Part shown: in pieces, positions 3,813-57,549 of the stretch
Layout: every line of letters starts with the position of its first letter
Position numbering within the stretch: the stretch's first letter is position 1
Origin: an uncultured Gammaproteobacteria bacterium
GTDB taxonomy: Bacteria; Patescibacteriota; Microgenomatia; Daviesbacterales; UBA10151
Direction: 5' to 3'
Assembly (NCBI GenBank): GCA_964640215.1
Contig: CAZXEW010000030.1
Location: forward strand, 17,920 to 81,919
Length of the DNA stretch: 64,000 nucleotides
The notes under the pieces: model-generated
The model's input: only the letters and a program-made list of their open reading frames with translations
What the model was told of the DNA's origin: nothing
The model's database searches: none
Translations under genes and position numbers: made by a program

Positions 3813-3935
3813 TGGTCAAAAAAAATCCGCTTTGGAGCGGATCTCTTTGCGGATATACACGCCGATGCGATTATAGTACCCAGCCCGCGTATTGCTATAT
3901 TAGCAAATTGGCTGTTTGGAAACAAGGAGAAAATA

Positions 3936-4803: not shown

Positions 4804-4805
4804 AT

Positions 4806-8764: not shown

Positions 8765-9457
8765 AATTAGGGTCCGTAGAATTAGGGTCCGACCCTTAGG
8801 TTTCAAGGGTCAATTCCCCTAAGGCTTCTTCAGTATTTTCTAGATAGTCTTCAACAAAATTTTCATACGAAAGGCAGTCTCTTAGATAGATATTGTGCGC
8901 AGTTTTGAAAAATGACAAAATAAAATCAGGTTTCACCCAATCAGCTTTAGCTAAAGATAGATAGTAACGATAGCTTGAAAAATCATATGTTTTAGGGTCG
9001 GACCCTGGATAAGGGTTAAGATGGATATAACGTGACAGGTGTAACAGGTAGATATCTTCCAGAATTATTGTTGCTTTATATTTTCCTTGAAATAACGTGC
9101 CTACCCGGTTGTATTTGAGATTGAAGAAAGTTGCATATTTAGTGCAGACGGCACGCATAAGCTTTGTTATCCCATCCTTAGTGATTTGATGTAGCATTAA
9201 ATGGAAATGATTTGGCATTAAGCAAAAGGCAAGTAAATTTACCTCTTGAGCTAGAGATTTAGGGTCCGACCCTAATGTTGGGTCAAGGTAATGTTTCAAA
9301 TAACTTAGGAAGATGGTGTAATCTTGCCTATCAAGAAAGATAATACGTTTTTCTACGCCTCGATTGTAAACATGGTAATAACTATTTTCGGAGAATTGTC
9401 TGATAGTGTTTTTTGCTGGCATTTGTTTTTTTGTTATCGGCTTTAGGGTCCGACCCC
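8765..9457. repeat. cluster of five copies of a 13-nt REP-like palindrome AGGGTC(C/G)GACCCT: 8765-8778 (imperfect), 8784-8796, 8994-9006, 9261-9273, 9445-9457
   Basis: Palindromes read directly. Two copies flank the RAYT gene on each side and two lie inside its CDS, each encoding G-S-D-P. Confidence 0.6.
8796..9422 (-). CDS. REP-associated tyrosine transposase (RAYT; IS200/IS605 TnpA-like HUH Y1 transposase)
   Basis: YHVYNRG N-terminal motif, HFHLML HUH motif, and a catalytic Tyr region QGKYKA. 208 aa. Flanked by REP palindromes. Confidence 0.75.
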   Translation of the reverse strand: MPAKNTIRQFSENSYYHVYNRGVEKRIIFLDRQDYTIFLSYLKHYLDPTLGSDPKSLAQEVNLLAFCLMPNHFHLMLHQITKDGITKLMRAVCTKYATFFNLKYNRVGTLFQGKYKATIILEDIYLLHLSRYIHLNPYPGSDPKTYDFSSYRYYLSLAKADWVKPDFILSFFKTAHNIYLRDCLSYENFVEDYLENTEEALGELTLET

Positions 9458-25774: not shown

Positions 25775-26449
25775 TTATATTTCTAAATATAACCGATCAA
25801 GTAATGATTGAATGGCAGCTTCACAGTAACCTACGTCTTGGAGTGACAAGGGGGGTTTAGTATATTTGATTGATGACTCAGGTAATCTGAAATATGGCCC
25901 TAATGCATCAAAATTAGCAGGTAATGGGTAGGCTTTAATGCAGTTTCCGCGAGAGTCAAAAAAGTAGTGGGTATAAAAATCATTTCTTCTTTCAGGATAT
26001 GCAGCGATAAGTTGTCTGGCAGCATCTAGATACTGTGGATCACCCAGAACTCCCAAGTGTAAAGAATTAACCGAGTTGAAATGGAGTGCATGAGCCCAAA
26101 GAGACTCCCGAGGATCTTCATGGACAAAAGTGACTGATCCTCCGCCGATTTCAGTTGGTATCTGTGCGTCTCGGATGCTGGCCACTAAGCGGGTACCCTG
26201 TCTATCGATCGTTGCGTTGGTAAATAACGGGATAGAATCCCGGCCATTATGGTTATTCAATCTCAGCTGATAGGAAATCTCATTGATAATTAGTGGGAAT
26301 TTACGTGAGATTGATAGAGTTCGACGACTGAATTCATTCGCTTCTAATAACCTCTGTGGCTTTGGGGTATCTGGTAATCCGAGTATTCTTAATACTTCAT
26401 TGATAGCATCTTCGGAATTGAAAGGTTCCTGCTCGGGTGATGTAGGCAT
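25775..26449 (-). CDS. hypothetical cytoplasmic protein, paralogue B1
   Basis: ~30% identical to 26514..27176. Shared blocks: PEQ..NSE.AI, IGxGS..F..ED.R, PER..F..YFD..GNC.KA..LPA.F. No known family recognised. Confidence 0.5.
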   Translation of the reverse strand: MPTSPEQEPFNSEDAINEVLRILGLPDTPKPQRLLEANEFSRRTLSISRKFPLIINEISYQLRLNNHNGRDSIPLFTNATIDRQGTRLVASIRDAQIPTEIGGGSVTFVHEDPRESLWAHALHFNSVNSLHLGVLGDPQYLDAARQLIAAYPERRNDFYTHYFFDSRGNCIKAYPLPANFDALGPYFRLPESSIKYTKPPLSLQDVGYCEAAIQSLLDRLYLEI

Positions 26450-26513
26450 AGAGAATATATTATATGGTTTTGGATTTTAGAGTCAAGATTAAATAGCTTC
26501 TGGAGATGTTTTA

Positions 26514-27176
26514 TTAATATAGGTGTTCAAATAATATGCGAGTGGCGGCTACACAAGTGTGCATGTCTTGGTTTGTCATTGCTGATCTGACCCATTTGAC
26601 TGCCATGTCAGGTATGATTAGAGAAGGCCGAGAGTCTTTGAATTCAGCAGGCAAGGAGAGGGCTTTGGCACAATTGCCGTCGTTATCAAAATAATAATAG
26701 CTGAAAAACTCATAATTTCTTTCAGGATCGTCATGAATATAGTTTAGGGCGTCGACTAGTGAATTTGGATCGTCTTGGATCCCCAGGCGCAACAAATGAT
26801 CTGATTTAATACCGAGAAATTGAGCCATATCAGATCGTCGATGGTCTTCATACATAAAGAGAATTGATCCTTCGCCAATCTGGGTAGGTAATCTAGTGTC
26901 AAGAATTGTTGCTTTTAGATGCCCTATTGTTTGATTGATGCGTAATCCTGGCAACAATGTCTCCTGCAGCTGAGGAGTATAATGCAGCCTTCCTATTTTT
27001 TTAAGAATTGAGTTGACTAGGTGATCATGAGAAGATGCAATCGCTCGAGCCGAACCTCTGGCTGCAGCCTGTAATCGTAACTCTTCTGATCGGGCGTCAT
27101 CTGATAAACTAAACCATCTTTCGGCTTCTGCGATTGCAGCCTCGGAATTTAGGGGTTGTTCAGGAACGAGAGACAT
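26514..27176 (-). CDS. hypothetical cytoplasmic protein, paralogue B2
   Basis: See B1. Divergent from A2 across a 66-bp shared promoter region. Confidence 0.5.
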   Translation of the reverse strand: MSLVPEQPLNSEAAIAEAERWFSLSDDARSEELRLQAAARGSARAIASSHDHLVNSILKKIGRLHYTPQLQETLLPGLRINQTIGHLKATILDTRLPTQIGEGSILFMYEDHRRSDMAQFLGIKSDHLLRLGIQDDPNSLVDALNYIHDDPERNYEFFSYYYFDNDGNCAKALSLPAEFKDSRPSLIIPDMAVKWVRSAMTNQDMHTCVAATRILFEHLY

Positions 27177-27242
27177 ACCGGATATATTATAGTATTTTGA
27201 TTTTTTTCGTCAAGGTTTTTAGATGGGTGATATACTATAGAC

Positions 27243-31667: not shown

Positions 31668-32348
31668 GTGAATCAGAAGTCGTTTAGTATTATTTTTTTG
31701 ATTGTTTTGGGGATTGCGGTGGCGGTGGTGGTGATATCGAGGCTGAGCGAGGGAGTCAATAGATCGTCGGCTAGCCCGACGCCGGTGCCGAGAATTGATA
31801 GTTTATTTCAACAGAGGGTTGAGTCTTCAGCGCAGGTTTCTCTAGCCACTGCAAGTCCTCAGGTTAGACAGACCAAGCAGTATCCTCACTTTCCGGGGAT
31901 TTATTTGCCGGAGCAGCTTAAGAATAAAAAAATCGTGATTTCAACGGCCAAGGGGAATATTGAATTTGAGATTTATCCGGAAGCGACCAAAGCGGCCTCG
32001 AATTTTATCTATTTGGCTCAGGATAAGTTTTATAATGGTTTAACTTTTCATCGAGTGGAGCCCTTTTTTGTGATCCAAGGTGGTGATCCGAAGAGGGATG
32101 GGTCCGGCGGGCCGGGTTATGTGTTCGAAGATGAAATGGTCAAGCGCGCCTATTCTAAAGGGATTGTAGCCATGGCCAATGCCGGGTCGAATACCAATGG
32201 TTCGCAGTTTTTTATTATGCTATCCGACCACCCGGAGTTACCGCCTAAGTACACCATCTTTGGCAAAGTTATTGCCGGACTTGACGTTGTGGATAAAATC
32301 CAAGCCGGAGACGTCATGCAGTCGGTTTCTGTGGCGAATTTGAAGTGA
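31668..32348 (+). CDS. ppiB: peptidyl-prolyl cis-trans isomerase, cyclophilin type, N-terminally membrane-anchored
   Basis: FHRVEPFFVIQGGDP, MANAGSNTNGSQFFI and TIFGKV are cyclophilin hallmarks. Confidence 0.8.
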   Translation: MNQKSFSIIFLIVLGIAVAVVVISRLSEGVNRSSASPTPVPRIDSLFQQRVESSAQVSLATASPQVRQTKQYPHFPGIYLPEQLKNKKIVISTAKGNIEFEIYPEATKAASNFIYLAQDKFYNGLTFHRVEPFFVIQGGDPKRDGSGGPGYVFEDEMVKRAYSKGIVAMANAGSNTNGSQFFIMLSDHPELPPKYTIFGKVIAGLDVVDKIQAGDVMQSVSVANLK

Positions 32349-32483: not shown

Positions 32484-32951
32484 ATGAAGTGCTGCTACTG
32501 CGCAAGTGTACTTAGCAAAGTTATTGACAAGCGAGAGGTTCAATCAACAGGGGAAATAAGGCGGCGGCGGGAGTGTTTGAAATGCCATAAACGGTATACG
32601 ACCTATGAGCGGGTGGCGGGTTTGGAGTTGATGGTGATCAAAAGGGATGGTCGCAAGGAGGCCTTTAGCCGGGATAAAATTCGCAGTGGGTTGGAGAGGG
32701 CATTGGAGAAGCGGCCCGGGATCGGTCAGGTGGGTGAGATCGTCGAGCGGATTGAGGCGAAGCTGAGAAGCAAAGGTGAAAAGATGGTAGCCTCGAAAGT
32801 GATCGGTCAGGCGGTGCTGATTGAGCTGCGAAAGATAGATAAAGTGGCTTATTTGCGGTTTGCGTCGGTTTATCGCTCCTTTCAGACGATGGGAGATTTT
32901 TCGAAGGAGCTGGAGTCGCTGGATAAGGTTCATCATAGCGAACATATATGA
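32484..32951 (+). CDS. nrdR: transcriptional repressor NrdR (zinc ribbon plus ATP-cone)
   Basis: MKCCYCAS...RRRRECLKCHKRYTTYER zinc ribbon followed by an ATP-cone. Overlaps the nrdJ start. Confidence 0.85.
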   Translation: MKCCYCASVLSKVIDKREVQSTGEIRRRRECLKCHKRYTTYERVAGLELMVIKRDGRKEAFSRDKIRSGLERALEKRPGIGQVGEIVERIEAKLRSKGEKMVASKVIGQAVLIELRKIDKVAYLRFASVYRSFQTMGDFSKELESLDKVHHSEHI

Positions 32952-35900
32952 AAAAAATTCAAAAACAGCGAGCAGTCTATCAACAAATTAGCCCGGTGAC
33001 CCGGTCGGTTCAGGACAGCGGTGAGATCCGTCCCCGTGTAGACAAGCAGATATTAGGTAAAAAATTTACGCCATGGTTTACTCCTGAGGTGTCGAGTCCG
33101 ACTCAATTGGAAGGTGTCAGACAGAAGGTTTTTTTGGACCGCTACGCCAACAAAGATGAGAAAGGTCAGCCGATTGAGCAAACGCCCGAGGAGATGTGGA
33201 CTAGGGTAGCCAACGGCATCGCTGAGATGGAGAAGACTCCAAAGTTAAAGCGCTATTGGGCGGAGCAATTTTATAAAGCGATGGAAGGGTTTAAGTTTGT
33301 ACCTGGCGGCAGGATTCTGTCTGGTGCCGGGACGGGTTATCAGGTGACGTTTTTTAATTGTTATGTTATCCCCTCCCCTGAGGATTCGCGCCGGGGGATT
33401 ATGGAAAATATTATGCACACAGTCGAGATTCAATCCCGGGCCGGTGGGGTGGGGGTCAATCTATCGTCGCTACGTCCAAACGGGGCCCGGGTTCGTAAGG
33501 TCAATGGGACATCGTCCGGTCCGGTCAATTGGGCGGCGCTATATTCAACAGCTAATCATGATGTGATCCAACACGGGGGTTCGAGGCGGGGGGCGTTAAT
33601 GCTGATGCTGCATGACTGGCATCCGGATTTGGTGGAGTTTATCCATGTTAAAGAAGATCTGTCAAAGATCCCCGGGGCTAATTTGTCGATTTGCGTCTCG
33701 GATAAATTTATGAAGGCGGTTAAAGAGGATGGGGAGTGGACGACCCGGTTTCCAGATCACTCAGATCCGGAGTATGACGAGCTGTGGGATGGCGATATCG
33801 AAGCTTGGGAGGCGAAGGGTAAACCGGTTATGATTTTTGCAACCTATAAAGCCCGGGATCTCTGGCGGCAAATTTGTACGGCGGCCTGGCAGTCAGCTGA
33901 GCCTGGCTTGCATTTTCTGGAGCGGTCAAATAAGCAATCAAACACTTTTTATTTTGAGAAACTTTTGAGCACAAATCCGTGCTTGACAGGAGATACCTGG
34001 GTTCATACCAATGATGGGCCTAAGCAAGTTAGCGATTTAATTGGGACCGAGTTTTTGGCTAGGATTAACGGTCAAAATTATTTATCGGGTCCAGGAGGCT
34101 TCTTTAAAACGGGAACAAAGCAGGTTATCAGGCTCCAAACTGTTGAAGGTTATCATCTGAGGTTAACCCGGAATCACTTGATTAAACGAGTACTTCCGAC
34201 GGCTTCTAGGCAGATAGAGACGGAGTGGTGCGAGGCAGGACAACTCAAGATAGGCGATCAAATTTTGCTTCACGATCATCGAGCGAATCCCTATTGGACT
34301 GGAGAATACAATGATAAGGAAGGATATTTAATGGGGCTGCTGGTTGGTGATGGTACTTTGAAGACTGATAAAGCCGTTTTGTCGGTCTGGGGTGGCGAAA
34401 ATGTTCATAACTTGGCTTATATTCCGGGGGTCCATGAAGTGATGCAGTTTGCCCTGCAAAATGCCTTTTCAGTTCCTCATCGGCGCGATTTTACGGGTTG
34501 GATGGCCATTCCAGGGCGTAACGAACATCGGTTGGCATTAGGATATATCAAACACTTAGCTCACCAACTGGGGATGTTTCCGGGTCGAAAAACAATTACA
34601 CCGGAGGTCGAAAAGACTTCGAGCGATTTTTACCGCGGTTTTTTGAAGGGATTGTTTGATGCTGATGGTTCGGTGCAAGGATTGGATGGTCGCATTTCGG
34701 TTCGGTTAGCTCAATCAGATTTGGGTTTTCTGGAAGCAGTTCAGCGGATGTTACTGCGTCTTGGAATTTTTTCCCACATCTACAAAAATAGACGAAAAGC
34801 TGGTTTGAAACTGCTCCCGGATGGTAAAGGTGGGTATAAAGAATATGCCACTCGGGCCCAGCACGAACTTTCGATCACTAAGGATAATGTGGAAGTTTTT
34901 AACGATTTGATCGGTTTTGCTAACAGTAAGAAAGCAACTGATTTAGCGAATAAGATAAGAGCCCATAGCAAGAGAGGTTTTTACAGTGAAAGGTTTGTGG
35001 TCAGGGTTGAAAGTTTAGAAACTGAAGCTAAAACTGAGGTTTTTGATGTTAAGATTCCGGGTGTAAACTATTTTGATGCCAACGGAATAGTGGCCCATAA
35101 TTGTGGGGAGCAGCCGTTGGGGGCTTGGGCGGTTTGTAATTTGGGGGCGATGAATCTGGCCGCCTATGTCAAGGATGGACAGTTTGATTACACGGGTTTG
35201 GATGCTGATGTGCGGGTGGCGATGCGGTTTATGGATAATGTGGTTAATGCTAATTATTATTTCTACGATATTAATGAAGAGAAAGCCAAAGAGATTCGCC
35301 GGACTGGAATAGGGACGATGGGGTTGGGGGACGCACTGATTAAGATGCAGATGCCGTATGGTTCAGCGGAGAGTTTGGCGGAGATTGAGAAGATTTACAA
35401 AACAATTAGGGACGCGGCCTATGAGACTTCAGCGGATTTAGCAACTGAGAAAGGTCCGTTTCCGATGTTTGTGGCTGAAAAGTTTGCCAAAGGTCATTTT
35501 ATTCGTCAATTGTCACCCTCACTCCAAGCTAAGATTGCTAAGCAGGGGATCAGAAATGCGGTGATACTGACACAGGCGCCGACTGGAACGACCTCGCTGG
35601 TGTCAGGCGTGTCTTCGGGGATTGAGCCGGTTTATGATTTTGCGATGATTAGAAAAGACCGGATCGGGGAGCATGTAATTTATCATCCCCTGTATCAAAA
35701 ATGGATGGAAGAAAATCCGGGGGCGAGTCAGAAACCGGACTATTTTGTGTCAGCCAACGACCTGACGCCAGATGAGCATGTTCAAGTTCAAGCCTTGATT
35801 CAAAAATATACTGACTCGTCGATTTCAAAAACTGTCAACGCGCCGAACAACCACACGATTGAGGATGTCGAAAAATTGTATATGGATGCTTACGATCTGG

Positions 35901-36568
35901 GGTGCAAGGGTGTGACTTATATGCGGGATGGTTCGCGTCTGGGGGTGCTAAGTCATATTGAAGAGAAAAAAGAAGCTGAGCCGGAGGTAGCTGCGCAGCC
36001 GGTGATCATGCATCGGCCGATGATGTTGGCCGGCCGAACTTATAAGGTTGAGACTCCGATGGGCGAGGCATTTATGACTATTAACCGGGACGATCAGAAC
36101 AACCCTTACGAGGTGTTTGTTAATATTGCCAAAGGCGGGATGCATACCAGTGCTGACGCTGAAGCGATCGGCCGGTTGATCTCGATGAATTTGCGCTACT
36201 CAAAGGGCAGTCGAATTGATACGGCCAGGCGGATTGTGTCCCAGCTGCGGGGGATCGGTGGTTCGCACAGTGTCGGGTTTGGTAAAGACCGGGTGATGAG
36301 TTTGGCGGACGCGGTGGCGAAAGTGCTGGCTGAAGAGATTGATTTAGCGACGGGTCAAGGTCAAACACCCGAGCCGGAGATGATGTCACTTCCATTGACT
36401 GTCGAGAGTCCGGCGGTCGATGAGGCAGTGTCTGCGCCCGCTGTTGAATTTAAAAATGGCTTGGCCAAGCACAACCATGCTGATCTTTGTCCGGAATGCG
36501 GCGGGGCCAGCCTGGTTCGGGAAGAGGGTTGCTCGAAATGCTACTCCTGCGGATATTCTAAGTGCTAA
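32948..36568 (+). CDS. nrdJ: ribonucleoside-diphosphate/triphosphate reductase, class II (adenosylcobalamin-dependent), containing an intein
   Basis: Catalytic block NP|CGEQPLGAWAVCNL split by an insertion. C-terminal zinc ribbon CPECGG...CSKCYSCGYSKC. 1206 aa including a 374-aa intein. Confidence 0.9.
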   Translation: MKKIQKQRAVYQQISPVTRSVQDSGEIRPRVDKQILGKKFTPWFTPEVSSPTQLEGVRQKVFLDRYANKDEKGQPIEQTPEEMWTRVANGIAEMEKTPKLKRYWAEQFYKAMEGFKFVPGGRILSGAGTGYQVTFFNCYVIPSPEDSRRGIMENIMHTVEIQSRAGGVGVNLSSLRPNGARVRKVNGTSSGPVNWAALYSTANHDVIQHGGSRRGALMLMLHDWHPDLVEFIHVKEDLSKIPGANLSICVSDKFMKAVKEDGEWTTRFPDHSDPEYDELWDGDIEAWEAKGKPVMIFATYKARDLWRQICTAAWQSAEPGLHFLERSNKQSNTFYFEKLLSTNPCLTGDTWVHTNDGPKQVSDLIGTEFLARINGQNYLSGPGGFFKTGTKQVIRLQTVEGYHLRLTRNHLIKRVLPTASRQIETEWCEAGQLKIGDQILLHDHRANPYWTGEYNDKEGYLMGLLVGDGTLKTDKAVLSVWGGENVHNLAYIPGVHEVMQFALQNAFSVPHRRDFTGWMAIPGRNEHRLALGYIKHLAHQLGMFPGRKTITPEVEKTSSDFYRGFLKGLFDADGSVQGLDGRISVRLAQSDLGFLEAVQRMLLRLGIFSHIYKNRRKAGLKLLPDGKGGYKEYATRAQHELSITKDNVEVFNDLIGFANSKKATDLANKIRAHSKRGFYSERFVVRVESLETEAKTEVFDVKIPGVNYFDANGIVAHNCGEQPLGAWAVCNLGAMNLAAYVKDGQFDYTGLDADVRVAMRFMDNVVNANYYFYDINEEKAKEIRRTGIGTMGLGDALIKMQMPYGSAESLAEIEKIYKTIRDAAYETSADLATEKGPFPMFVAEKFAKGHFIRQLSPSLQAKIAKQGIRNAVILTQAPTGTTSLVSGVSSGIEPVYDFAMIRKDRIGEHVIYHPLYQKWMEENPGASQKPDYFVSANDLTPDEHVQVQALIQKYTDSSISKTVNAPNNHTIEDVEKLYMDAYDLGCKGVTYMRDGSRLGVLSHIEEKKEAEPEVAAQPVIMHRPMMLAGRTYKVETPMGEAFMTINRDDQNNPYEVFVNIAKGGMHTSADAEAIGRLISMNLRYSKGSRIDTARRIVSQLRGIGGSHSVGFGKDRVMSLADAVAKVLAEEIDLATGQGQTPEPEMMSLPLTVESPAVDEAVSAPAVEFKNGLAKHNHADLCPECGGASLVREEGCSKCYSCGYSKC
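33980..35101 (+). mobile_element. intein (374 aa) with LAGLIDADG homing-endonuclease domain inserted in the NrdJ active-site motif
   Basis: Starts with Cys (CLTGDTWVHT), ends with HN followed by the +1 Cys of the CGEQ motif. Two LAGLIDADG motifs: LMGLLVGDGT and LKGLFDADGSV. Confidence 0.8.
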
Positions 36569-36587
36569 CGAGCTATTAATCATTAGG

Positions 36588-36596
36588 TGATATAAT
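36588..36596 (+). promoter_or_regulatory. extended -10 TGATATAAT 7 nt upstream of the mntA ATG (leaderless transcript)
   Basis: ggtgatataatatttccATG. Confidence 0.4.
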
Positions 36597-36602
36597 ATTT
36601 CC

Positions 36603-36890
36603 ATGAAAAATAGGATTGATCAGATTAAGGCTAAGGCATTGCCTATTCTTCAACAAGCAGGAGTAACTCGTTCTGCTATTTTTGGGTCGGTGGCTAGAGG
36701 TGAGGCGAAAGCTGAAAGTGATATTGATATTTTAGTAGATTTTCCGAGGGGTAAGGGTTTATTTGATTTTGTGGGGTTGAAACTTGATTTAGAGGAGGCC
36801 TTAGGTCGGAAAGTCGATTTAGTCCAGTATGGTACTATCAAACCGGCGATTCGAGAATATGTCCTCCGTGATCAAATTCAGATATTATGA
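36603..36890 (+). CDS. mntA: minimal nucleotidyltransferase (MntA-like antitoxin of an NTase/HEPN type VII TA pair)
   Basis: GSVARGEAKAESDIDILVDF (GS...DxD NTase motif). 95 aa. Confidence 0.75.
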   Translation: MKNRIDQIKAKALPILQQAGVTRSAIFGSVARGEAKAESDIDILVDFPRGKGLFDFVGLKLDLEEALGRKVDLVQYGTIKPAIREYVLRDQIQIL

Positions 36891-37237
36891 AGCGGACGAT
36901 AAAGCTATATTTAGATGATATCTTAGAAAGCATTGAGCTTATTCAAAAATACACTGTTAGCCTAACGGAAGAAGAATTTGGTGATAACGTCGCAGTTCAA
37001 GATGCGGTGCTTAGGAGGTTGGAGATAATTGGTGAAGCTAGTAACCACCTACCAGAGGATGTTAGACAGGAATATTCGAATGTCCCCTGGAAAAAGGTCG
37101 TTGGTATGCGTAATCTAATCAGTCACGAATACTTTGCTGCTGACATTGAGGTTGTTTGGGATACTGTAAAAATAGATTTGCCCAAGCTAAAAATAGCCGT
37201 GGAGAGATCAACGCTAGCCAAGGTATCCGAAAACTAA
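36887..37237 (+). CDS. hepT: HepT-like HEPN toxin (DUF86)
   Basis: MRNLISHEY (Rx4-6H HEPN motif). Overlaps the mntA stop. Confidence 0.75.
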   Translation: MKRTIKLYLDDILESIELIQKYTVSLTEEEFGDNVAVQDAVLRRLEIIGEASNHLPEDVRQEYSNVPWKKVVGMRNLISHEYFAADIEVVWDTVKIDLPKLKIAVERSTLAKVSEN

Positions 37238-37248
37238 TAGCTTGTAGG

Positions 37249-37303
37249 CCGCGAAGACGGTTGCGAAAAATGCTGCAGTTGCGGATATTCTAGGTGCTAA
37301 GGA
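37249..37303 (+). repeat. ~55-bp imperfect direct repeat of the nrdJ 3' end (36519-36572)
   Basis: gaagacggttgcgaaaaatgctgcagttgcggatattctaggtgctaaggag versus nrdJ gaagagggttgctcgaaatgctactcctgcggatattctaagtgctaacgag. It would encode EDGCEKCCSCGYSRC* against NrdJ EEGCSKCYSCGYSKC*. Confidence 0.65.
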
Positions 37304-37665
37304 GAAGTGTTGGGGTGTGTTTGTTGGTAGGCTTCAAGGTCAGAGGGGTGAATAAAGTAACCCGGGCCAATACGCACTGCTGGCATCAGACCATTTATTA
37401 CGTTTCGCCAAACAGTCTGTCTTGAAATACCAAGTATTGACCCAGCCTGACCTAGTATAAGCAAATTTTCTCCTGATGATTCGAGTGAGGCATCTGGAAT
37501 TCGTAGACGTTTTCCTAGAGTTGTACGGGCGATATCTATTGTAAGGTCGTCTGCAAGGGCAAGTAGATCAGTTATTGATAATTTTTTAAGATAATCGAAT
37601 TTAGGTTTGCCTAGCGTATCCTGAATTCGTCTGATAATGGATGCATCTGTTTCAGGATTGACCAT
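37297..37665 (-). CDS. DNA-binding protein with C-terminal excisionase/MerR-type HTH (HTH_17)
   Basis: LGISRQTVWRNVINGLMPAVRIGPGYFIHPSDLEAY. Confidence 0.5.
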   Translation of the reverse strand: MVNPETDASIIRRIQDTLGKPKFDYLKKLSITDLLALADDLTIDIARTTLGKRLRIPDASLESSGENLLILGQAGSILGISRQTVWRNVINGLMPAVRIGPGYFIHPSDLEAYQQTHPNTSP

Positions 37666-37753
37666 AGAAGGATTATATGTCGAATGTGAATACTGTCAAT
37701 TGGTACTATATATAGTAGCTTGCTAAGCACGGCACACTAGCTATACTACTATC

Positions 37754-38332
37754 ATGGCTGAAAAACGGGTGGTGAATAGGGGGTTTAAAAGGAAGTATTT
37801 CGAGTCGGATAAGGGGTTGGTGATTGTTTATACCGGTGAAGGGAAGGGGAAGACCACGGCGGCGCTGGGGTTGGCTTTGCGCTCGGCCGGGTATAAAAAA
37901 CGGGTGTTGATTGTTCAATTTGGCAAGACTTGGTTTACCGGCGAGATCGAGGGGGTTAAAAAATTAGCGCCGTACGTCAAGCTGATCCAAGGGGGGTTGG
38001 GGTTTGTCAAAATTTTTGATGATAATTCAACTACTCTGGAACACGTCGAGATGGCTAATAAGACCTTTGAGCTGGTCTACGATGAGCTGACATCTGGTAA
38101 ATGGGATGTAGTGGTCGCCGACGAGATTGTCGGGGCGATTGCGGCCAAGTTGTTGAAATTTGAACAAGTCGCAAAATTGATTAAAGATAAACCCTACCGG
38201 GTGGATTTGGTCTTGACCGGTCATTACGCCAGCAAAAATTTGCTGGAACTGGCTGATACAGCCACTGAAATGGTCCAAATTAAGCATGTTTATCAAAAAG
38301 GTATCCTGGCCAAGCCGGGGGTGGATTACTAA
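37754..38332 (+). CDS. btuR: cob(I)yrinic acid a,c-diamide / cob(I)alamin adenosyltransferase (BtuR/CobA/CobO family)
   Basis: VIVYTGEGKGKTTAALGLALR P-loop typical of CobA/BtuR. ~190 aa. Confidence 0.8.
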   Translation: MAEKRVVNRGFKRKYFESDKGLVIVYTGEGKGKTTAALGLALRSAGYKKRVLIVQFGKTWFTGEIEGVKKLAPYVKLIQGGLGFVKIFDDNSTTLEHVEMANKTFELVYDELTSGKWDVVVADEIVGAIAAKLLKFEQVAKLIKDKPYRVDLVLTGHYASKNLLELADTATEMVQIKHVYQKGILAKPGVDY

Positions 38333-38346
38333 TACTATCGGTTTTA

Positions 38347-38573: not shown

Positions 38574-39257
38574 GTGAAGCCAACGTTCGGTTCAATCAGA
38601 GCCGAAGATTTTCGGTTCAAACGGGAATTACCAGCAGATCAGCTCCTGTTGATGTATCGGGATTTTGAGCGGGAATGCATCGATAAACAAGCTACGACTA
38701 TTGCTAGACGAGAGTATAAGAGCCTACCGTTTATTAGAGCAGGTTGGGAGTGGTCGGTTTTTCGACTGGATGATTGGTCAGTGGTAAAAATCCCAGCTGG
38801 GATTTTTACGGAGGTGGCGGACGAGCGATATCTAGAGAATAGTCGAGAGGCTTATTTGCAATTAGGACGCTTTTTTCCAGCAGCATTTATCGCTAAAAGT
38901 CAGTTTCGACGCGAAGATGACTTGAGTATCATCGAGCAGGAATATATCGAAGGACCCTGGGCGATAGAGGTAGTATACGATGAGATTGATTTTCAGTTAA
39001 AGGGTCGGTTAGTTGAATTTTTAAGCGCGGCTAAGCAGATGGTAATGGAGTTGCATTGGAATCCGGATTTTCATCTAAACCCGTCGCCGGCAGGATTTAA
39101 GTTACGTAATACAATGTTGCAAATTTCGACAGGTTTACCAAAACTGATCGATTTTACATCGTTGATTGATACCTATCGAATATTTCCTCAGATGACCGAG
39201 CGGGTGGTGCAACATCAGATTCAGAGGATTGATGAAGTATTAGCCCGGTTAAAATGA
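38574..39257 (+). CDS. hypothetical protein
   Basis: 227-aa ORF. No motifs recognised. Confidence 0.4.
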   Translation: MKPTFGSIRAEDFRFKRELPADQLLLMYRDFERECIDKQATTIARREYKSLPFIRAGWEWSVFRLDDWSVVKIPAGIFTEVADERYLENSREAYLQLGRFFPAAFIAKSQFRREDDLSIIEQEYIEGPWAIEVVYDEIDFQLKGRLVEFLSAAKQMVMELHWNPDFHLNPSPAGFKLRNTMLQISTGLPKLIDFTSLIDTYRIFPQMTERVVQHQIQRIDEVLARLK

Positions 39258-39299
39258 CCTATAATTGATTGTGATCCCGATATTTGTTATTATAGACTC

Positions 39300-40124
39300 A
39301 TGAAATTGCTGTTTGATGTCGGTGGAACAAATATACGGTTAGGGGTTTCTGAGACTGGCGAGAAGATAGATCAGCAGACGATTTTCCCGAATCCGGAAAA
39401 ATTTGAAGATGCTTTGGTTAGGATGTGGGATGAGTCTCGAAAATTAGTTGGTCAACAACCGATCGAGATGGTGGTTGCAGGACTTGCCGCCCCGGTATCT
39501 AAAGATCGTTCACACATATTAAATGGAGGTAATATACCAGCGTGGTTTGACCGGCGTTTGTTAGATGAAATTGGCCGAAAATTTGAAACAGAGAAGGTTT
39601 ATTTAGAAAACGATGCCAAGATGGCTGCCTTGGGGGAGGCGGGATATGGAGCTGCGAAAGGATATGATTATGCGGCTTATTTAACTATTAGTACTGGAGT
39701 TGGGGGTGCGATTGTGCGGGGTGGTCGAGAAGTTCGTGGTTTTGAGCCTGCATATCAGATTGTGGCTTACGACAGGCCGTTGGATCCAATCGAAAATAGA
39801 CATGGATTAGGTGATCAACTGGATGGTTGGAAGATTGCGCAGCGGTATGGGTTGAAAGCAGAACACATCGAAGATCCGCGGGTCTGGAAAGAGATAACTC
39901 GTTGGAGCGGAGTACTGGTTCGGAACACCATCGTTAACCACGATCCTGATATTATCGTAATTGGTGGGTCATTAACCAAAAGTTTGAATTTAGAAGAGAT
40001 AGTCGCGGTGGCTAAGGAGCCGCCTCAAGCATATCCAGAGTTGCCACCAATAGTTTATGCGTCTTTGGGGGATTATGGTGGGTTGTATGGGGCATTGCAG
40101 CTCTCGAATCTGGTTGATAGTTAA
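39300..40124 (+). CDS. ROK family sugar kinase (glucokinase-like)
   Basis: LLFDVGGTNIRLGV N-terminal ATPase motif, ENDAKMAALGE, ISTGVGGAIV. Confidence 0.75.
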   Translation: MKLLFDVGGTNIRLGVSETGEKIDQQTIFPNPEKFEDALVRMWDESRKLVGQQPIEMVVAGLAAPVSKDRSHILNGGNIPAWFDRRLLDEIGRKFETEKVYLENDAKMAALGEAGYGAAKGYDYAAYLTISTGVGGAIVRGGREVRGFEPAYQIVAYDRPLDPIENRHGLGDQLDGWKIAQRYGLKAEHIEDPRVWKEITRWSGVLVRNTIVNHDPDIIVIGGSLTKSLNLEEIVAVAKEPPQAYPELPPIVYASLGDYGGLYGALQLSNLVDS

Positions 40125-40370
40125 GACGGGATTCTGGAGGTGCAGGCTTCCCAGAATGACAGGGTTAGAAGATTGCCACTCCGACGGTTGCTGGATCGTA
40201 ATGACGTGGTAGTGTTTAGCGGTAGTCGGTCAGCGGTAAGCTGATTTGGAGGGTTGACAGGAGTTAGCACTCGTGATAATATTCTGCTAATTATTAAGCG
40301 AAACTCTGAGAATAAAGGTAACTTCTCGACTTCGCTTAGAAGAAAATATAGAGGCTCGGAGAATATATAG

Positions 40371-40413
40371 ATTCCCGCCTTCGCGGGAATGACGAAAATA
40401 AAATGGGAATGAC
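40371..40413. repeat. hairpin repeat element copy (ATTCCCGCCTTCGCGGGAATGAC plus a second GGGAATGAC) ending 2 nt before the lon ATG
   Basis: Read directly. Degenerate relatives at 40130-40200. Confidence 0.6.
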
Positions 40414-40415
40414 GA

Positions 40416-42824
40416 ATGAATATGCCGATTGACGTAATATCACATCCCCTGAAACTCAAAAGCGTGCTGCCGGTTGGACCGCTGCGCGGGACGGTTATTT
40501 ATCCGGGAGCCAATGTGCCGATTATCTGCGGGCGGGCCAAATCGCGCTCTGCCTTGGATGCGGCTTTTGCGACCGATCGGTTGATCGTCTTTGTGACCCA
40601 GAAAAATGAACGGTTGGATGAGCCGACGGTCAAAGATTTGTTTCAGGTCGGGACGGTCTGTCTGATCAAGCGGGTGGTTAGAGTCGAAAACGAGTATCAA
40701 GTTCAGGCTGAGGGTTTGGTGCGGGTCTTTTTGAAAAATTATACCCAGTTGGAGCCTTTCTTTGAGGCCGAAATTGATGAAATCCCGGAGCTGTTTGAGA
40801 AAAATGAAGAGACCGAGGCGCTGAGCCGGACGGTCCGAGAGCAGCTCAAACGCTATTTAGAGCTAAGCGGCAATCCGTGGATTGATCCGACCACTCTTCA
40901 AAACTGGTCGATGTTGTCGTTTAACGACGATCCGAATCAGCTGGTCAATACGATCTGCCAGGCGATTGATTTTAAGACCATTGATAAGCAGCAAATTTTG
41001 GAAACGATCTCGGCGGTCGAGCGGTTACGGAGGGTGTCGGAGCTGCTGGCCAAGGAGCTGAGGATTTTAGAGATTTCCCAGAAAATTTCCTCACATACTC
41101 AGGAGCGGGTGTCGCGAATGACTAAAGAGGCGATTTTGCGTGAGCAGATGCGTTCGATCGAGGAGGAGTTGGGGGAGAATAATGAGAATCAGGAAATTCG
41201 CGAATTTGAATTGAAGATCCGTAAGGCGACCATGCCTAAAGAGGTTCGGGAGAAGGCCATCAAAGAGCTATCGCGGCTGGCCAAGATGTCGACCTATAAC
41301 CCGGAGGCAGGTTATATCCGCAATTATTTGGAATGGCTGACTGATTTGCCCTGGAAGGTGTCTGGCAAGACCAAAGTCGATATGAGATCAGCTGAAAAGA
41401 TTTTGGATGAAGATCATTATGGGCTGAAAAAGGTCAAGGAGCGGATTTTGGAATATTTGGCGGTCTATAAATTGTCGGGCAAAATTAAGGGTCCGATTTT
41501 GTGTTTTGCCGGACCTCCGGGAGTAGGTAAGACGTCGATTGGTAAATCAATTGCCCGCTCTCTTGGGCGAAAATTTGTCAAAGTATCTTTAGGTGGAATA
41601 CGGGATGAGGCGGAGATTCGGGGTCATCGACGAACTTATGTTGGCTCGATGCCGGGGCGAATCGTCCAATCGATCAAGCAGGCCGGGGTGACCAATCCGG
41701 TGTTTATGCTGGATGAGATTGATAAAGTTGGGGCAGACTACCGTGGTGATCCGTCGGCGGCTTTGCTGGAGGCGTTGGATCCGGAGCAAAATAACCAGTT
41801 TTCTGACCATTATTTGGAGGTGCCGTTTGATCTGTCGAATGTGATGTTTATTACGACTGCTAATGTGCTTGATACGATTCCACCGGCCCTGCGGGATCGG
41901 TTAGAGGTGATCCGCTACGCGGGCTACACCCAGGATGAGAAGTTTCATATCGCCAAGAAATATTTGATTCCTAAAACTGTCGAGTCGAGCGGGTTGAAGC
42001 CTAATCAGATCGAGTTTGAAGATAAAGCGGTTGAAAAGATCATTGATAGTTATACTCGTGAGGCTGGAGTGCGCAGTTTGGAGCGGGAGATTGCGGGAGT
42101 GGTCCGAAAAGTGGTCCGTAAGATCGCTGATGGAGATGTCAAAAAGACCTTTGTAGTGACCAGCGAAGAGATTGAAAAGCTGCTGGGGCCGATTAAGTTC
42201 TTTCCGCAGCTGGCTGAGATTGAAGATATGGTTGGTGCGACTACGGGGTTGGCTTGGACTGAAGCTGGTGGGGATATTTTGTTTATCGAAGTGTCGTTGA
42301 TGCCAGGTCGAGGCCAAATTGTGCTGACCGGGCAGCTTGGAGATGTGATGAAGGAGTCGGCACAGGCGGCGATGTCGTATGTCCGCTCAAACTGGCACAA
42401 GATCGGTCTGCCGGAGCGGTTTTTCCATAAAGTTGATGTCCATGTCCATGTGCCGGACGGCGCGACTCCCAAAGATGGCCCATCAGCCGGGAGTGCGTTG
42501 ACCACGGCGATTGTGTCGGCTTTTACTAAGGTGCCGGTTCGAAAAGACGTGGCGATGACCGGTGAGGTGACACTGAGAGGTCGGGTGTTGGAGATCGGGG
42601 GTTTGAAGGAAAAAGTGATAGCGGCTCACCGGGCTGGAGTCAAAACCGTGATTGCTCCTGAAAATAATCGAAAAGACCTGGAGGATATTCCAGATTACGT
42701 TCGAAACGAGATGAATTTTGTGTTTGTCAAACACATGGATGATGTTTTGGCCGTCGCCCTGTCACGCCCACCGGTTGCCGGCAGCCTCAAACACCGCCCT
42801 CTCCCCGCTCCGGCGTTTGCCTAG
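40416..42824 (+). CDS. lon: ATP-dependent protease La (Lon)
   Basis: Lon N-domain, Walker A GPPGVGKTS, and a protease domain with PKDGPSAG around the catalytic Ser. Confidence 0.9.
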   Translation: MNMPIDVISHPLKLKSVLPVGPLRGTVIYPGANVPIICGRAKSRSALDAAFATDRLIVFVTQKNERLDEPTVKDLFQVGTVCLIKRVVRVENEYQVQAEGLVRVFLKNYTQLEPFFEAEIDEIPELFEKNEETEALSRTVREQLKRYLELSGNPWIDPTTLQNWSMLSFNDDPNQLVNTICQAIDFKTIDKQQILETISAVERLRRVSELLAKELRILEISQKISSHTQERVSRMTKEAILREQMRSIEEELGENNENQEIREFELKIRKATMPKEVREKAIKELSRLAKMSTYNPEAGYIRNYLEWLTDLPWKVSGKTKVDMRSAEKILDEDHYGLKKVKERILEYLAVYKLSGKIKGPILCFAGPPGVGKTSIGKSIARSLGRKFVKVSLGGIRDEAEIRGHRRTYVGSMPGRIVQSIKQAGVTNPVFMLDEIDKVGADYRGDPSAALLEALDPEQNNQFSDHYLEVPFDLSNVMFITTANVLDTIPPALRDRLEVIRYAGYTQDEKFHIAKKYLIPKTVESSGLKPNQIEFEDKAVEKIIDSYTREAGVRSLEREIAGVVRKVVRKIADGDVKKTFVVTSEEIEKLLGPIKFFPQLAEIEDMVGATTGLAWTEAGGDILFIEVSLMPGRGQIVLTGQLGDVMKESAQAAMSYVRSNWHKIGLPERFFHKVDVHVHVPDGATPKDGPSAGSALTTAIVSAFTKVPVRKDVAMTGEVTLRGRVLEIGGLKEKVIAAHRAGVKTVIAPENNRKDLEDIPDYVRNEMNFVFVKHMDDVLAVALSRPPVAGSLKHRPLPAPAFA

Positions 42825-43445: not shown

Positions 43446-43802
43446 ATGAGCTTAAATATACAGCAGAAGTATCATCTACCCTCAGAAATAGAGGTAGCAA
43501 TCAGTCGTAGTAAAAATGAATATTATGCGAAATTGACTGATTACCCTGGATGTTTCACTGTGGCCGACAGTTGGTTGGAATTAATTCAAAATATTACTGA
43601 TGCTGTTTTAACCTATTTTGAAGTTCCCAGAGAAGAGGCCCAGAATTGTAACATTTATTATTTACCGACTATGCCGGAATTGGTGGATTTTGAGAGTAGG
43701 GTGAGCCAGCCATCTTCGGATTCTCGAATTAGTGCGAAGTTTTTGTACCTTTACCATTCTGCCCAGAACGGTTCTTATGCCAAGCATTCCCGTATTCGGT
43801 AG
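43446..43802 (+). CDS. hicB: HicB-like antitoxin (UPF0150 fold)
   Basis: YYAKLTDYPGCFTVADSWLELIQNITDAV resembles the HicB N-terminal domain (xxxPGCxxxGxTxEEA pattern). Confidence 0.5.
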   Translation: MSLNIQQKYHLPSEIEVAISRSKNEYYAKLTDYPGCFTVADSWLELIQNITDAVLTYFEVPREEAQNCNIYYLPTMPELVDFESRVSQPSSDSRISAKFLYLYHSAQNGSYAKHSRIR

Positions 43803-55288: not shown

Positions 55289-56803
55289 ATGGCATTAGAG
55301 GAGGTTAAGAAAGACCGGCTCAAAAAGCTGGCGAATATCAAGAATCTGGGGATTGATCCTTATCCGGCGAAAGCGGAGCGAAAGCAAGCGGTAGCGCAAG
55401 CCTTGGATTTGTTAGGTAAAAAAGTGACCGTGGTGGGACGTATTAGGTCTCTTAGACCGCATGGCAAAATTGCCTTTGCGGATTTGGAGGATGAGTCAGG
55501 GAAGATTCAGTTGCTGTTTACGGAGATGGGTTCCCGCCTACGCGGGAATGACAGCAGAGGGAGTGGGAATGACAAGGGGAGGAGTGGGAATGACAAGAAA
55601 GAATGGAATGGAGGCGGCGGGTTTGATTTTTTGAATAATTTGGATCTCGGGGATTTTTTGGAGGCATCGGGTGAGGTTATAAAAACTCAAGCAGGGCAAA
55701 CGACGGTTCAGGTCGATGATTTTAGGTTGTTGACGAAATCTTTGCGGCCGCTGCCGGTCGAGCATTTCGGGTTGAAGGATACGGAAGAAAGATTGCGTAA
55801 GCGTTATTTAGACCTGATTTTGAATCCGGAAGTTAAAGAAATGTTTCGGCTAAAAACCAAGTTTTGGGCCAGCCTGCGCAGCTTTTTGATCGAAAAAGGC
55901 TTTTTGGAGGTTGAGACGCCGGTGCTGCAGGCGATTCCGGGAGGAGCTGATGCCCGGCCGTTTGTGACTCATCACAACGCCCAGGATATGGACCTATATT
56001 TACGGATTTCTTTGGAGCTGCCGCTGAAACGGTTACTGGTTGGCGGTTTTGAGAAGGTCTTTGAGATCGGCCGGATTTTCCGAAACGAGGGGATTGATGA
56101 CGAGCATTTGCAGGATTATACTCAACTGGAGTTTTATTGGGCGTACGCTGATTACAACCAGCTGATGGATTTTGTTCAGGAGATGTATCAGCGGGTGATA
56201 TCGGAGACTTTTGGGAGATTAACCACCAGTTGGCATGGTCATGAGATAAATTGGGAAGGTGATTGGTCGAGGATGGATTATACCCAATTGCTTGACGAAT
56301 ACTGGAAGGTGAAAACCAGTGAAATGTCGGTCGATGATTTGTATGAATTGGCCAAAAAATTAGGGGTTAATGTTGAACCGAAGCTTGGAAAGTGGCGGTT
56401 GCTGGATTATCTTTATAAAAAAACGATCCGGCCGAAAATTATTCAACCGATGTTTGTGATTAATCATCCGGTCGAGGTTGAACCACTGGCTAAACGACTG
56501 GAATCGGATCTGACCAAGGTCCAAAGGATGCAGGTTTTGGCGACCGGTTCGGAGCTTGGTAAGGGTTTTTCAGAGTTGAATGACCCGATTGATCAAAAAG
56601 AGCGGTTTGTGGAGCAGGAAAAGCTGCGTAAAGGCGGCGATGAGGAGGCCCAGATGATGGATGAAGATTTTGTCGAAGCGCTGGAGTACGGGATGCCGCC
56701 GGCGGCTGGCTTTGGGATTTCGGAGAGACTGTTTTGGAGGTTGGTTGATAAAACCGCCCGGGAATGCGTCTTTTTCCCGACGATGAGGGCTGAGAAAGAA
56801 TGA
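55289..56803 (+). CDS. lysS: lysyl-tRNA synthetase (class II) carrying a ~30-aa in-frame repeat-encoded insertion in the N-terminal OB domain
   Basis: OB-fold anticodon-binding domain, motif 2 FRNEG, motif 3 AGFGISERL. The insertion MGSRLRGNDSRGSGNDKGRSGNDKKEWNGGGG is encoded by the repeat at 55531-55594. Confidence 0.9.
   Translation: MALEEVKKDRLKKLANIKNLGIDPYPAKAERKQAVAQALDLLGKKVTVVGRIRSLRPHGKIAFADLEDESGKIQLLFTEMGSRLRGNDSRGSGNDKGRSGNDKKEWNGGGGFDFLNNLDLGDFLEASGEVIKTQAGQTTVQVDDFRLLTKSLRPLPVEHFGLKDTEERLRKRYLDLILNPEVKEMFRLKTKFWASLRSFLIEKGFLEVETPVLQAIPGGADARPFVTHHNAQDMDLYLRISLELPLKRLLVGGFEKVFEIGRIFRNEGIDDEHLQDYTQLEFYWAYADYNQLMDFVQEMYQRVISETFGRLTTSWHGHEINWEGDWSRMDYTQLLDEYWKVKTSEMSVDDLYELAKKLGVNVEPKLGKWRLLDYLYKKTIRPKIIQPMFVINHPVEVEPLAKRLESDLTKVQRMQVLATGSELGKGFSELNDPIDQKERFVEQEKLRKGGDEEAQMMDEDFVEALEYGMPPAAGFGISERLFWRLVDKTARECVFFPTMRAEKE
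55531..55594. repeat. hairpin repeat element (TTCCCGCCTACGCGGGAATGAC plus two GGGAATGAC units) inserted in-frame in lysS
   Basis: Read directly. Reading frame preserved. Confidence 0.7.
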
Positions 56804-57405: not shown

Positions 57406-57500
57406 GGTCGAACAATAATTAGGATGGTCGAACAATAATTAGGATGGTCGAACAATAATTAGGATGGTCGAACAATAATTAGGATGGTCGAACAATATTT
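57406..57500. repeat. tandem repeat, 20-bp unit GGTCGAACAATAATTAGGAT x4.7, between the HD gene and serS
   Basis: Four perfect copies (57406, 57426, 57446, 57466) plus a partial fifth. No spacers. Confidence 0.85.
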
Positions 57501-57549
57501 TTTGAGCACCTCATTAATATTCTTCGAAGCCTAGTCGAGAAGTACAGAT

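Follow-up and report, generated by a model that had tools for sequence, protein, structure and literature searches.

The stretch of DNA analysed here (64 kb; hereafter the window) belongs to a metagenome-assembled genome (MAG) of Candidatus Daviesbacteria (Patescibacteria). In it, the ribonucleotide reductase gene nrdJ is followed by an mntA-hepT toxin-antitoxin (TA) module, and the module is followed in turn by a second copy of the last codons of nrdJ (Table 1). The functional tail of nrdJ (Ta) and the core of the downstream copy (Tb) form a direct repeat with 44 of 55 positions equal (80%) and a spacing of 732 nt. Homology begins at the Arg codon located 17 codons ahead of the nrdJ stop and continues until 4 nt beyond it, and may extend upstream by ~9 nt, comprising Leu-Val codons at 37241-37246 and an extra GGC. 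The resident tail encodes REEGCSKCYSCGYSKC and the downstream copy REDGCEKCCSCGYSRC, or (LVG)REDGCEKCCSCGYSRC with the possible extension, each closed by a stop codon. The longest identical run between the two tails is 13 nt (TGCGGATATTCTA), which fits a crossover core or simply the conserved Cys-Gly-Tyr-Ser codons.

An earlier reading of the window made from its letters alone (the sequence-only reading) had placed this repeat on both sides of mntA-hepT, and we confirmed its position as well as the two peptides. The end 66 nt of 63 open reading frames (ORFs) in the window, i.e. 126 termini, were aligned against the flanking 3 kb. Only two of these termini have a diverged copy nearby, the nrdJ 3′ end (score 27.5) and the 5′ end of the transketolase gene tktC (score 38), both far above the background (maximum 15.5, median 9.5). 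The reading frame of nrdJ is intact, and nrdJ, hepT and Tb share one frame. Read from its codons, Tb is not a gene, because it lacks a start codon and is preceded by the in-frame stops TAA TAG at 37235-37240, 3 codons upstream of its core; no relative has a genuine second zinc-ribbon gene at this place. Misassembly does not account for the junctions, because an independently assembled Logan contig (L081 from ERR3478687; L-numbers are labels of the related genomes and loci that we compared) reproduces 35420-38336 with 1 mismatch in 2917 nt.

The insert measures 681 nt and fits only a promoter and the two TA genes. The 34 nt between the Ta stop and mntA hold the promoter alone, and Tb starts 3 nt past the double stop of hepT. 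The genes are co-oriented with the antitoxin first, and the mntA stop overlaps the hepT start in ATGA (36887-36890). MntA carries FGS-VARGEAKAES-DID, that is GS-X10-DXD with exactly X10, and HepT carries RNLISHEY, that is RX4HXY. The MntA motif is as defined in PMC7641770, and both motifs, together with the matches to PF01909 and PF01934, bear out the identity that the sequence-only reading had assigned to the pair. By its motifs mntA-hepT is an ordinary, divergent class I type VII TA module whose activity is predicted. In the characterised Shewanella system, MntA polyadenylylates the tyrosine of the HepT RX4HXY motif (PMC7641770); by analogy, HepT of the window is predicted to be an RNase that MntA neutralises through adenylylation of that tyrosine. 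The nearest HepT homologue among 5.8 billion proteins is 62% identical, and the closest homologues (≤62%) lie in unrelated contexts with no flanking repeats. A viral collection contained no HepT relative, and its NrdJ relatives are just 29-43% identical.

The sequence-only reading had described the TA pair as leaderless. A leaderless mntA transcript is plausible, because a −10 element ends 6 nt before the ATG and a Shine-Dalgarno sequence is lacking; the promoter function is suggested by the sequence. A −10 hexamer 6-9 nt before the start codon is found at ~14 of the 63 genes, including cobA and the helix-turn-helix (HTH) gene downstream of Tb, and a Shine-Dalgarno-like motif at ~12 of 63. Because so many genes have the same geometry, leaderless expression seems to be common in this genome and not a mark of the cassette. 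Examples of such leaderless-type promoters are located at 37672-37699 (−), 37720-37747 (+), 26450-26490 and 27177-27217, and the tandem paralogues at 25775-26449 and 26514-27176 share such a promoter.

Next to Tb lies an orphan HTH_17 gene, whose stop overlaps that of Tb by 2 nt. We compared the locus with 160 other loci centred on nrdJ relatives, ~123 of which keep the nrdJ 3′ end. MntA, HepT and the HTH protein are absent from all 160, and the HTH protein has no homologue but itself, hence no clue to its origin.

Divergence of the two nrdJ tails

Ta and Tb differ at 10 of 51 coding nucleotides. The differences are CGG/CGC (synonymous), GAG/GAC (E/D), TCG/GAA (S/E, 3 changes), TAC/TGC (Y/C), TCC/AGT (Ser/Ser, 3 changes) and AAG/AGG (K/R). 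Two codons have thus been wholly replaced, TCG/GAA and the synonymous serine switch TCC/AGT, which by our own calculation is expected among 10 random changes with P ~0.002. When random mutation was simulated, no more than four amino-acid changes with an intact frame and stop were obtained with P = 0.011. Each of the four amino-acid differences affects a position at which functional NrdJ tails vary, and in Tb the Cys codons (all four), the Gly codon and the stop are unchanged.

Among the 122 nrdJ tails of other genomes, the best match of Tb is that of L109 (46/51, against 41/51 for Ta), although the L109 reductase as a whole is only ~42% identical to NrdJ of the window. The best matches of Ta to tails of unrelated lineages reach 43/51, i.e. 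Ta is no closer to Tb than to these. The tail of L001, one of the two closest relatives, agrees with Ta at 42 and with Tb at 39 of 51 positions.

Since the differences are structured by codon and the tails have these affinities, the two appear to have diverged as working coding sequence in different genomes. Tb probably evolved as such apart from the resident end, in another lineage, and at least one of the two tails would therefore have arrived by horizontal exchange. The sequence-only reading had regarded Tb as a diverged duplicate of the host terminus; the codon-structured divergence and the closer match to the L109 tail led us to reject this. We also considered a longer tract from an L109-like donor. 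The 5′ part of cobA is 73-74% identical to that of L109, as it is with every other lineage, and there is no recent tract.

Displaced termini at other loci

The sequence-only reading had named the tkt locus of the window as another case of a cassette bracketed by a duplicated gene end. This repeat is real (65 nt, 83% identical, spacing 1050 nt), but it involves the 5′ end of a gene, and its cargo is not a TA module. The order is tktN (2574-3461), a small membrane ORF, the stranded tktC start, the cassette and tktC (4806-5828). The stranded start is fused to a 42-codon extension (ORF 3756-3938), and past codon 18 the two tktC copies have weak similarity only (~39% of nucleotides). The cassette has no counterpart in L170-L172, the relatives that we used at this locus. 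In L170, tktN is followed by the small ORF and tktC, and the small-ORF stop overlaps the tktC start in ATGA, as it does with the stranded copy in the window. Given this shared coupling, the stranded end sits at the ancestral position, and the functional end is the one that adjoins the insert. Both copies have a lineage-specific Gly codon that occurs in 0 of the 119 other listed TktC homologues, and third positions account for five of the seven coding differences between them, so the tktC donor was probably a close relative. Both copy-to-copy spacings in the window (732 and 1050 nt) are multiples of three; this may be coincidence (1 in 9), and the units of L007 and L009 described below differ.

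Silent extra nrdJ tails are present in three more Daviesbacteria genomes, five in L007 and one each in L009 and L065. They were found by a DNA-level terminus scan covering 1.5 Mb of related loci and a relaxed motif scan, and had been missed by a strict zinc-ribbon motif scan of 161 loci; ~120 of 124 nrdJ loci have a single tail. The tails of L007 form an array directly after nrdJ, 5.4 copies of a 101-nt tandem unit (L007:7170-7705), in which the last 11 codons of nrdJ plus the stop, silent and codon-perfect, close each unit; the other two are at L009:7222-7324 and L065:645-719. Silent and resident tails in these genomes differ at 7-12 of 36 nt but at 0-1 amino acid (P < 1e-5 each in the simulation); serine switches (TCN/AGY) are among these differences, and all three stop codons occur. 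All tails encode one CxxC...CG[YF]SxC zinc-ribbon peptide. The spacers between the tails are unrelated, non-coding (39-64 nt) and have no other occurrence in the 1.5 Mb scanned, so that we dismissed them as dispersed mobile repeats. The non-coding spacers and the tkt cargo, which encodes a membrane protein besides an S26-like peptidase, show that the phenomenon is not confined to TA modules, with which the earlier reading had linked it.

The affinities of the silent tails connect different lineages. The silent tail of L009 agrees with the functional tail of L065 at 32 of 36 positions, and silent tail 1 of L007, flank included, is similar to the L009 functional end. Of the two L065 copies, the downstream one looks native, with 28-31 of 36 positions shared with the closest relatives by gene body against 22-24 of 36 for the functional copy. 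L009 is the reverse, the native-like copy being upstream. This difference is in keeping with crossover points that vary rather than with a fixed site. In L009 and L065 alike, what follows the second tail is homologous to the DNA that follows the single tail of relatives.

In L007 and L065, the sequence just past the stop is the reverse complement of the tail's own Lys-Lys-Cys-Tyr codons, and the resulting 12-16-bp hairpin co-varies with the synonymous variant (L007 fold, z = −3.3). Because this post-stop arm matches the codons of its own tail, each unit in L007 and L065 would thus be a complete former nrdJ 3′ end. The hairpin is absent from both tails of the window, the RNA fold of Tb is not significant (z = +1.3), and Rfam has no hits at Tb or at the L007 and L065 units. 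Short tandem copies beside or within gene ends were likewise picked up by the terminus scan at L047:10805-10909, L026:752-859 and L094:2459-2575 (scores 32-38).

The nrdJ-cobA slot and other features of the window

The backbone ppi-nrdR-nrdJ-cobA-lon is conserved across Daviesbacteria, but nrdJ and cobA lie 13 to 1904 nt apart and in L013 seem to overlap by 19 nt. The contents of the gap are unrelated and comprise RAYT-like Y1 transposase genes, ORFs of 390-480 aa behind a conserved leader, and hypothetical genes. The gap is a hypervariable slot that holds different accessory genes in different Daviesbacteria. Comparative genomics of the region downstream of nrdJ, which the earlier reading had pointed to, thus yielded this slot, silent tails in three genomes, and the mntA-hepT cassette at none of the 160 other loci.

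The leader of ~100 nt (GAAGCTCCGAAGTYTGTGAAACTCARACACTGTGCCGCAACCGTATAGCCGGGTCGAAGGCTTC...) in this gap precedes the 390-480-aa ORFs, which have no assigned function, in L004, L008, L009, L011, L012, L065 (760-850) and L086-L088; for the L065 copy, no Rfam family reached the gathering threshold. Lying beside B12-related genes, the leader may be a cis-regulatory RNA not yet described. The window has a Y1_Tnp (IS200/RAYT-like) gene between pfkB and fba (8796-9422, −), and ORFs of 213-216 aa with the same N-terminal motif, assigned to the family by eye, occupy the nrdJ-cobA gap in L003, L028, L029, L031, L035 and L053. Between cobA and lon (38574-40459), the window contains a 227-aa ORF without a family match, a ROK-family gene and a 112-aa ORF; in most relatives lon follows cobA after 40-120 nt, so that these genes are another lineage-specific fill in a variable slot. 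A HicB-like antitoxin gene is located at 43446-43802. An internal duplication in cobA of L018 (L018:1617-1717) flanks a run of N and was discarded as a scaffold artefact.

A search of 185,579 species-representative genomes and of JGI metagenomes gave Daviesbacteria MAGs as the best NrdJ matches, with at most 75% (74-75%) identity over the C-terminal 386 residues. L001 and L002 are the closest relatives throughout (ppi, nrdR, cobA, lon and both NrdJ exteins), and L001 NrdJ is identical to that of the window at 84% of the N-extein and 76% of the C-extein. Because the flanking genes and both exteins are consistently closest to these two, the body of nrdJ looks vertically inherited. The nrdJ intein occurs also in L082, L106 and partly L006, and is absent from L001, L003, L005 and L007, which are among the closest relatives. 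Among Daviesbacteria, the same nrdR-nrdJ-cobA slot holds two deeply different class II reductases, whose N-exteins are 27-29% or 74-84% identical to that of the window, compared with 60-83% for nrdR, cobA and lon. The gene of the window was compared with those of L026-L029, L106, L107 and L109. Two forms of nrdJ in one slot look like xenologous displacement in situ.

Other repeats in the window are of different kinds. The palindrome TTCCCGC-N4-GCGGGAA, often followed by TGAC, has five copies of 18 nt (21835, 40372, 47877, 55531 and 63080) versus 0.01 expected. The copy at 55531 lies in frame inside the OB domain of a gene for a 504-aa class II aminoacyl-tRNA synthetase (lysS/aspS-like, 55289-56803), to which it adds ~28 residues (SRLRGNDSRGSGNDK...), and the copy at 63080 lies inside a 993-aa ORF. 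The palindrome also stands directly after the silent nrdJ tail of L009. It resembles repetitive extragenic palindromic (REP) elements or Rickettsia-type palindromic elements. At 57406-57505, four tandem copies of a 20-nt unit (GGTCGAACAATAATTAGGAT) and a partial fifth are located in the intergenic region after an HD-domain gene.

Table 1. Coordinates of the nrdJ and tkt loci in the window
Feature	Position	Strand	Remarks
ppi	31668-32348		conserved backbone
nrdR	32484-32951		conserved backbone
nrdJ, class II (B12-dependent) ribonucleotide reductase	32948-36568	+	Pfam Ribonuc_red_lgC (1e-111), LAGLIDADG_3, TSCPD; C-terminal zinc-ribbon tail
LAGLIDADG intein in nrdJ	33983-35101		NrdJ aa 346-718; limits from tblastn gaps against the intein-less L001, L003, L005 and L007
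functional nrdJ tail, copy Ta	36518-36572	+	last 16 codons, stop and 4 nt; serves as the reference in direct repeat D5
extended −10 promoter-like element TGaTATAAT	36588-36596	+	ends 6 nt before mntA ATG; no Shine-Dalgarno; read from sequence
mntA, MNT nucleotidyltransferase antitoxin, 95 aa	36603-36890	+	PF01909 (1.2e-14), PF18765
hepT, HEPN RNase toxin (predicted), 116 aa	36887-37237	+	PF01934 (1.6e-27)
stranded second nrdJ tail, copy Tb	37241-37304 (core 37250-37304)	+	start-less; in frame with hepT behind TAA TAG
orphan HTH_17 (excisionase/MerR-like DNA-binding) gene, 122 aa	37297-37665	−	PF12728 (2.9e-8); convergent with the cassette
promoter of the HTH gene, perfect sigma-70 consensus TTGACA-16-TATAAT	37672-37699	−	12/12 match; ends 6 nt before ATG
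cobA, ATP:corrinoid adenosyltransferase	37754-38332	+	PF02572 (2e-52); conserved anchor downstream of the variable slot
lon	40416-42824		after cobA and lineage-specific genes
stranded tktC 5′ end	3744-3808	+	direct repeat D3; 12 nt upstream and 18 codons; ATGA-coupled to upstream small ORF
tkt-locus cassette	3935-4803	+	S26-like peptidase 3935-4375 (PF10502, 2e-7); 143-aa membrane ORF 4372-4803 (no family match)
functional tktC 5′ end	4794-4858	+	partner of the stranded copy

Origin of the second tail and comparison with known systems

The reading that we favour, with moderate confidence, is that the locus is the footprint of recombination with DNA from another lineage, in which the conserved zinc-ribbon-coding terminus of nrdJ served as the patch of homology. 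Donor DNA from another Daviesbacteria lineage, carrying a nrdJ terminus beside accessory DNA, would have recombined into the locus through the highly conserved last 50-60 nt of the gene. Being rich in Cys and Gly codons, the tail is among the most nucleotide-conserved stretches of the locus. The exchange may have been homology-facilitated illegitimate recombination of a linear fragment, homologous at one end and with the illegitimate joint 3 nt past the hepT stop, or else a circularised fragment integrated by one Campbell-type crossover. Both routes would leave the end of nrdJ intact, add accessory DNA and strand one start-less tail. Host recombination would do the work, with the TA module as cargo and not as engine, and variable crossover positions would leave the native-like copy on either side. 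We infer the route from the anatomy, the codon-preserving divergence, the variability of the slot, the recurrence and the lack of recombinase genes, which are observed.

Pfam scans of ~60 ORFs across the window detected no integrase, resolvase, serine recombinase or reverse transcriptase, and the sole transposase-related match is the Y1_Tnp-like gene, 27 kb from the cassette. The insert ends have neither terminal inverted repeats nor transposase ends, and there is no attC-like hairpin at Tb, just 3-12 nt from the hepT stop. The sequence-only reading had proposed a recurring insertion mechanism that regenerates the interrupted gene end. The tkt locus, with its stranded copy at the ancestral position, supports such regeneration, and together with the silent tails of L007, L009 and L065 it fits the recurrence, but no dedicated machinery is visible.

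Several observations weigh against the recombination that we favour. RecA-type recombination over ~55 nt at 80% identity, with a longest identity of 13 nt, is very inefficient, and both junctions leave hardly any room (3 nt from the hepT stops to Tb, 34 nt from the Ta stop to mntA). The two cases in the window are alike in repeat length (55 and 65 nt) and in their in-frame spacing (732 and 1050 nt), a regularity that hints at something more ordered than accidents. The tail is only 51 nt, so that the affinity of Tb to L109 amounts to 5 versus 10 differences. The tails of L001 and L002 have REEGCQKC, and the identities of 42 versus 39 of 51 with the L001 tail favour neither copy decisively. Neither a donor genome nor an empty-site relative nor any close relative was found in the genome and metagenome scans.

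How ultra-small, streamlined genomes of the candidate phyla radiation, with few recognisable mobile-element genes, gain genes is poorly understood. The nrdJ locus offers a concrete, datable footprint, in which accessory DNA sits at the boundary of an essential gene, the gene is unbroken, and a fragment of a second nrdJ allele has been left behind. In our reading, Tb marks DNA exchange between lineages at the nrdJ 3′ end and not a local duplication, and we give the proposed footprint of recombination an even chance. Judging from the tktC case and from the silent tails in three other Daviesbacteria genomes, gene gain may use conserved gene termini as landing pads.

The locus could also be explained by a miniature site-specific cassette of the type of e14 or phage 21 in icd, which would integrate in the last 50-60 nt of nrdJ, replace the end with a surrogate of its own and push the native one downstream, the recombinase acting in trans or having been deleted. 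The arrangement is that of attL and attR consisting of a gene end, and the two copies differ mostly synonymously or conservatively, as with e14 in icd (PMC6379469). The same gene end is affected in L007, L009 and L065, and tktC is a further case; the junctions are tight and the repeats similar in length; a gene of an excisionase family abuts Tb; and the stranded tktC copy at the ancestral position means that the functional end came with the insert. However, neither the cassette, which has room for a promoter and two TA genes only, nor the rest of the window contains a tyrosine or serine recombinase, and no identical core exceeds 13 nt. The cassette occurs at 0 of 160 other nrdJ loci, and its nearest homologues are elsewhere, without repeats. 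Cargo and homology boundaries vary (−51/−60 in the window versus −36 in L007, L009 and L065), the native-like copy is on opposite sides in L065 and L009, and the HTH gene is an orphan outside the bracket. We consider this explanation possible but unlikely.

A bolder generalisation, which we regard as doubtful, is that Daviesbacteria and perhaps other Patescibacteria regularly add cassettes of 0.1-1 kb without an integrase or with one in trans. Their landing sites would be the final or initial 12-20 codons of conserved essential genes (nrdJ and tktC). Every cassette would bring along a synonymously recoded surrogate terminus with which the host gene survives, and the displaced termini would pile up as silent, codon-perfect fossils, as in the array of L007. 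Such a miniature, recombinase-less analogue of e14 in icd would, if true, be a new kind of cassette system. If there is no dedicated mechanism, stranded termini would still be a practical marker with which to detect and orient recombination in uncultured lineages.

Homing driven by breaks is distinctly improbable. Here, a nuclease would cut sensitive nrdJ termini, and repair from a recoded resistant allele would co-convert the flanks and sometimes leave an extra tail, with accessory genes hitch-hiking. Inteins, introns and free-standing homing endonucleases classically target the genes of ribonucleotide reductases, and nrdJ of the window already hosts a LAGLIDADG intein. The extreme synonymous diversity of the tails between related lineages, with serine switches and three stops under a strictly conserved peptide, also agrees with homing, but at a nucleotide divergence of 25-30% synonymous sites should be saturated in any case. 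No nuclease gene lies beside any of the four tail duplications, HepT being an RNase and the intein site 2.5 kb upstream, and ~120 of the 124 nrdJ loci are single-tailed.

Duplication in situ at the time of insertion, as a long target-site duplication or by replication slippage, followed by neutral decay of Tb, is strongly disfavoured and in our view very improbable. A direct repeat does bracket the insert, and Cys9 and Arg15 of Tb are found in no functional tail and may reflect decay after stranding. Against this stand the two full codon swaps and the simulation reported above, the nearness of Tb to a foreign tail rather than to Ta, the far lower P values of the L007, L009 and L065 tails in the same test, and the lack of transposase ends. 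We know of no bacterial transposition mechanism that makes duplications of 55-65 nt. A chimera assembled from two strains that co-exist, or a real small gene for a zinc ribbon, to which the metagenomic source and the open frame of Tb up to its stop might point, is scarcely credible given the Logan contig that spans all junctions, a hepT/Tb junction without any repeat able to mislead an assembler, and the start-less Tb behind its stops.

Among other mechanisms, we rejected a diversity-generating retroelement, as the window has no reverse transcriptase and just 2-3 of the 10 mismatches involve A in either copy; an integron cassette, as there is neither an attC hairpin nor IntI; and a transposon target-site duplication, as the repeat is 55 nt at 80% identity and codon-preserving, without inverted repeats at the insert ends.

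The TA module is in itself an ordinary member of a known family, nothing distinct in kind from other type VII HepT/MntA systems apart from its divergence (≤62%) and its leaderless-type promoter. Integron cassettes are similarly small and tightly packed, with a promoter-proximal cassette at a recurrent site, but the cassette of the window has its own promoter and no attC, IntI or attI.

The insertions of e14 and phage 21 in icd are alike in that a housekeeping gene harbours the insert within its terminal codons and remains intact through a substitute end adjoining the insert. The e14 element supplies the last codons of icd and strands a start-less icd′ of 163 bp, and the two ends differ conservatively (PMC6379469). 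Rac, in the 5′ end of ttcA of E. coli, parallels the tktC case. These elements are prophages of 15-23 kb with their own integrase and a defined identical core, whereas the inserts in the window are 0.68 and 1.05 kb, no recombinase is present in 64 kb, the core is at most 13 nt, and the other genomes compared lack the cassette at this site.

For the stranded 3′ ends in type VI secretion system (T6SS) and Rhs arrays, homology-facilitated illegitimate recombination was proposed (PMC5361080). The Rhs, contact-dependent inhibition (CDI) and T6SS arrays likewise consist of a gene body, the current 3′ end with its linked gene or genes, and then start-less older or foreign ends, without an integrase, and the five extra tails of L007 resemble the build-up of such arrays. 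There, the toxins encoded by the displaced ends differ and this diversity is selected, whereas the nrdJ tails encode the same zinc-ribbon peptide of a housekeeping reductase, so that there is no pay-off at the protein level. Their polarity, with the newcomer upstream, is supported at tktC and in L065 and reversed in L009; at the window nrdJ, the tail identities with L001 given above are the measure that bears on it. The stranded codon-preserving tails of four Daviesbacteria genomes, together with the stranded tktC start, are a variant of known terminus-regenerating or terminus-displacing recombination.

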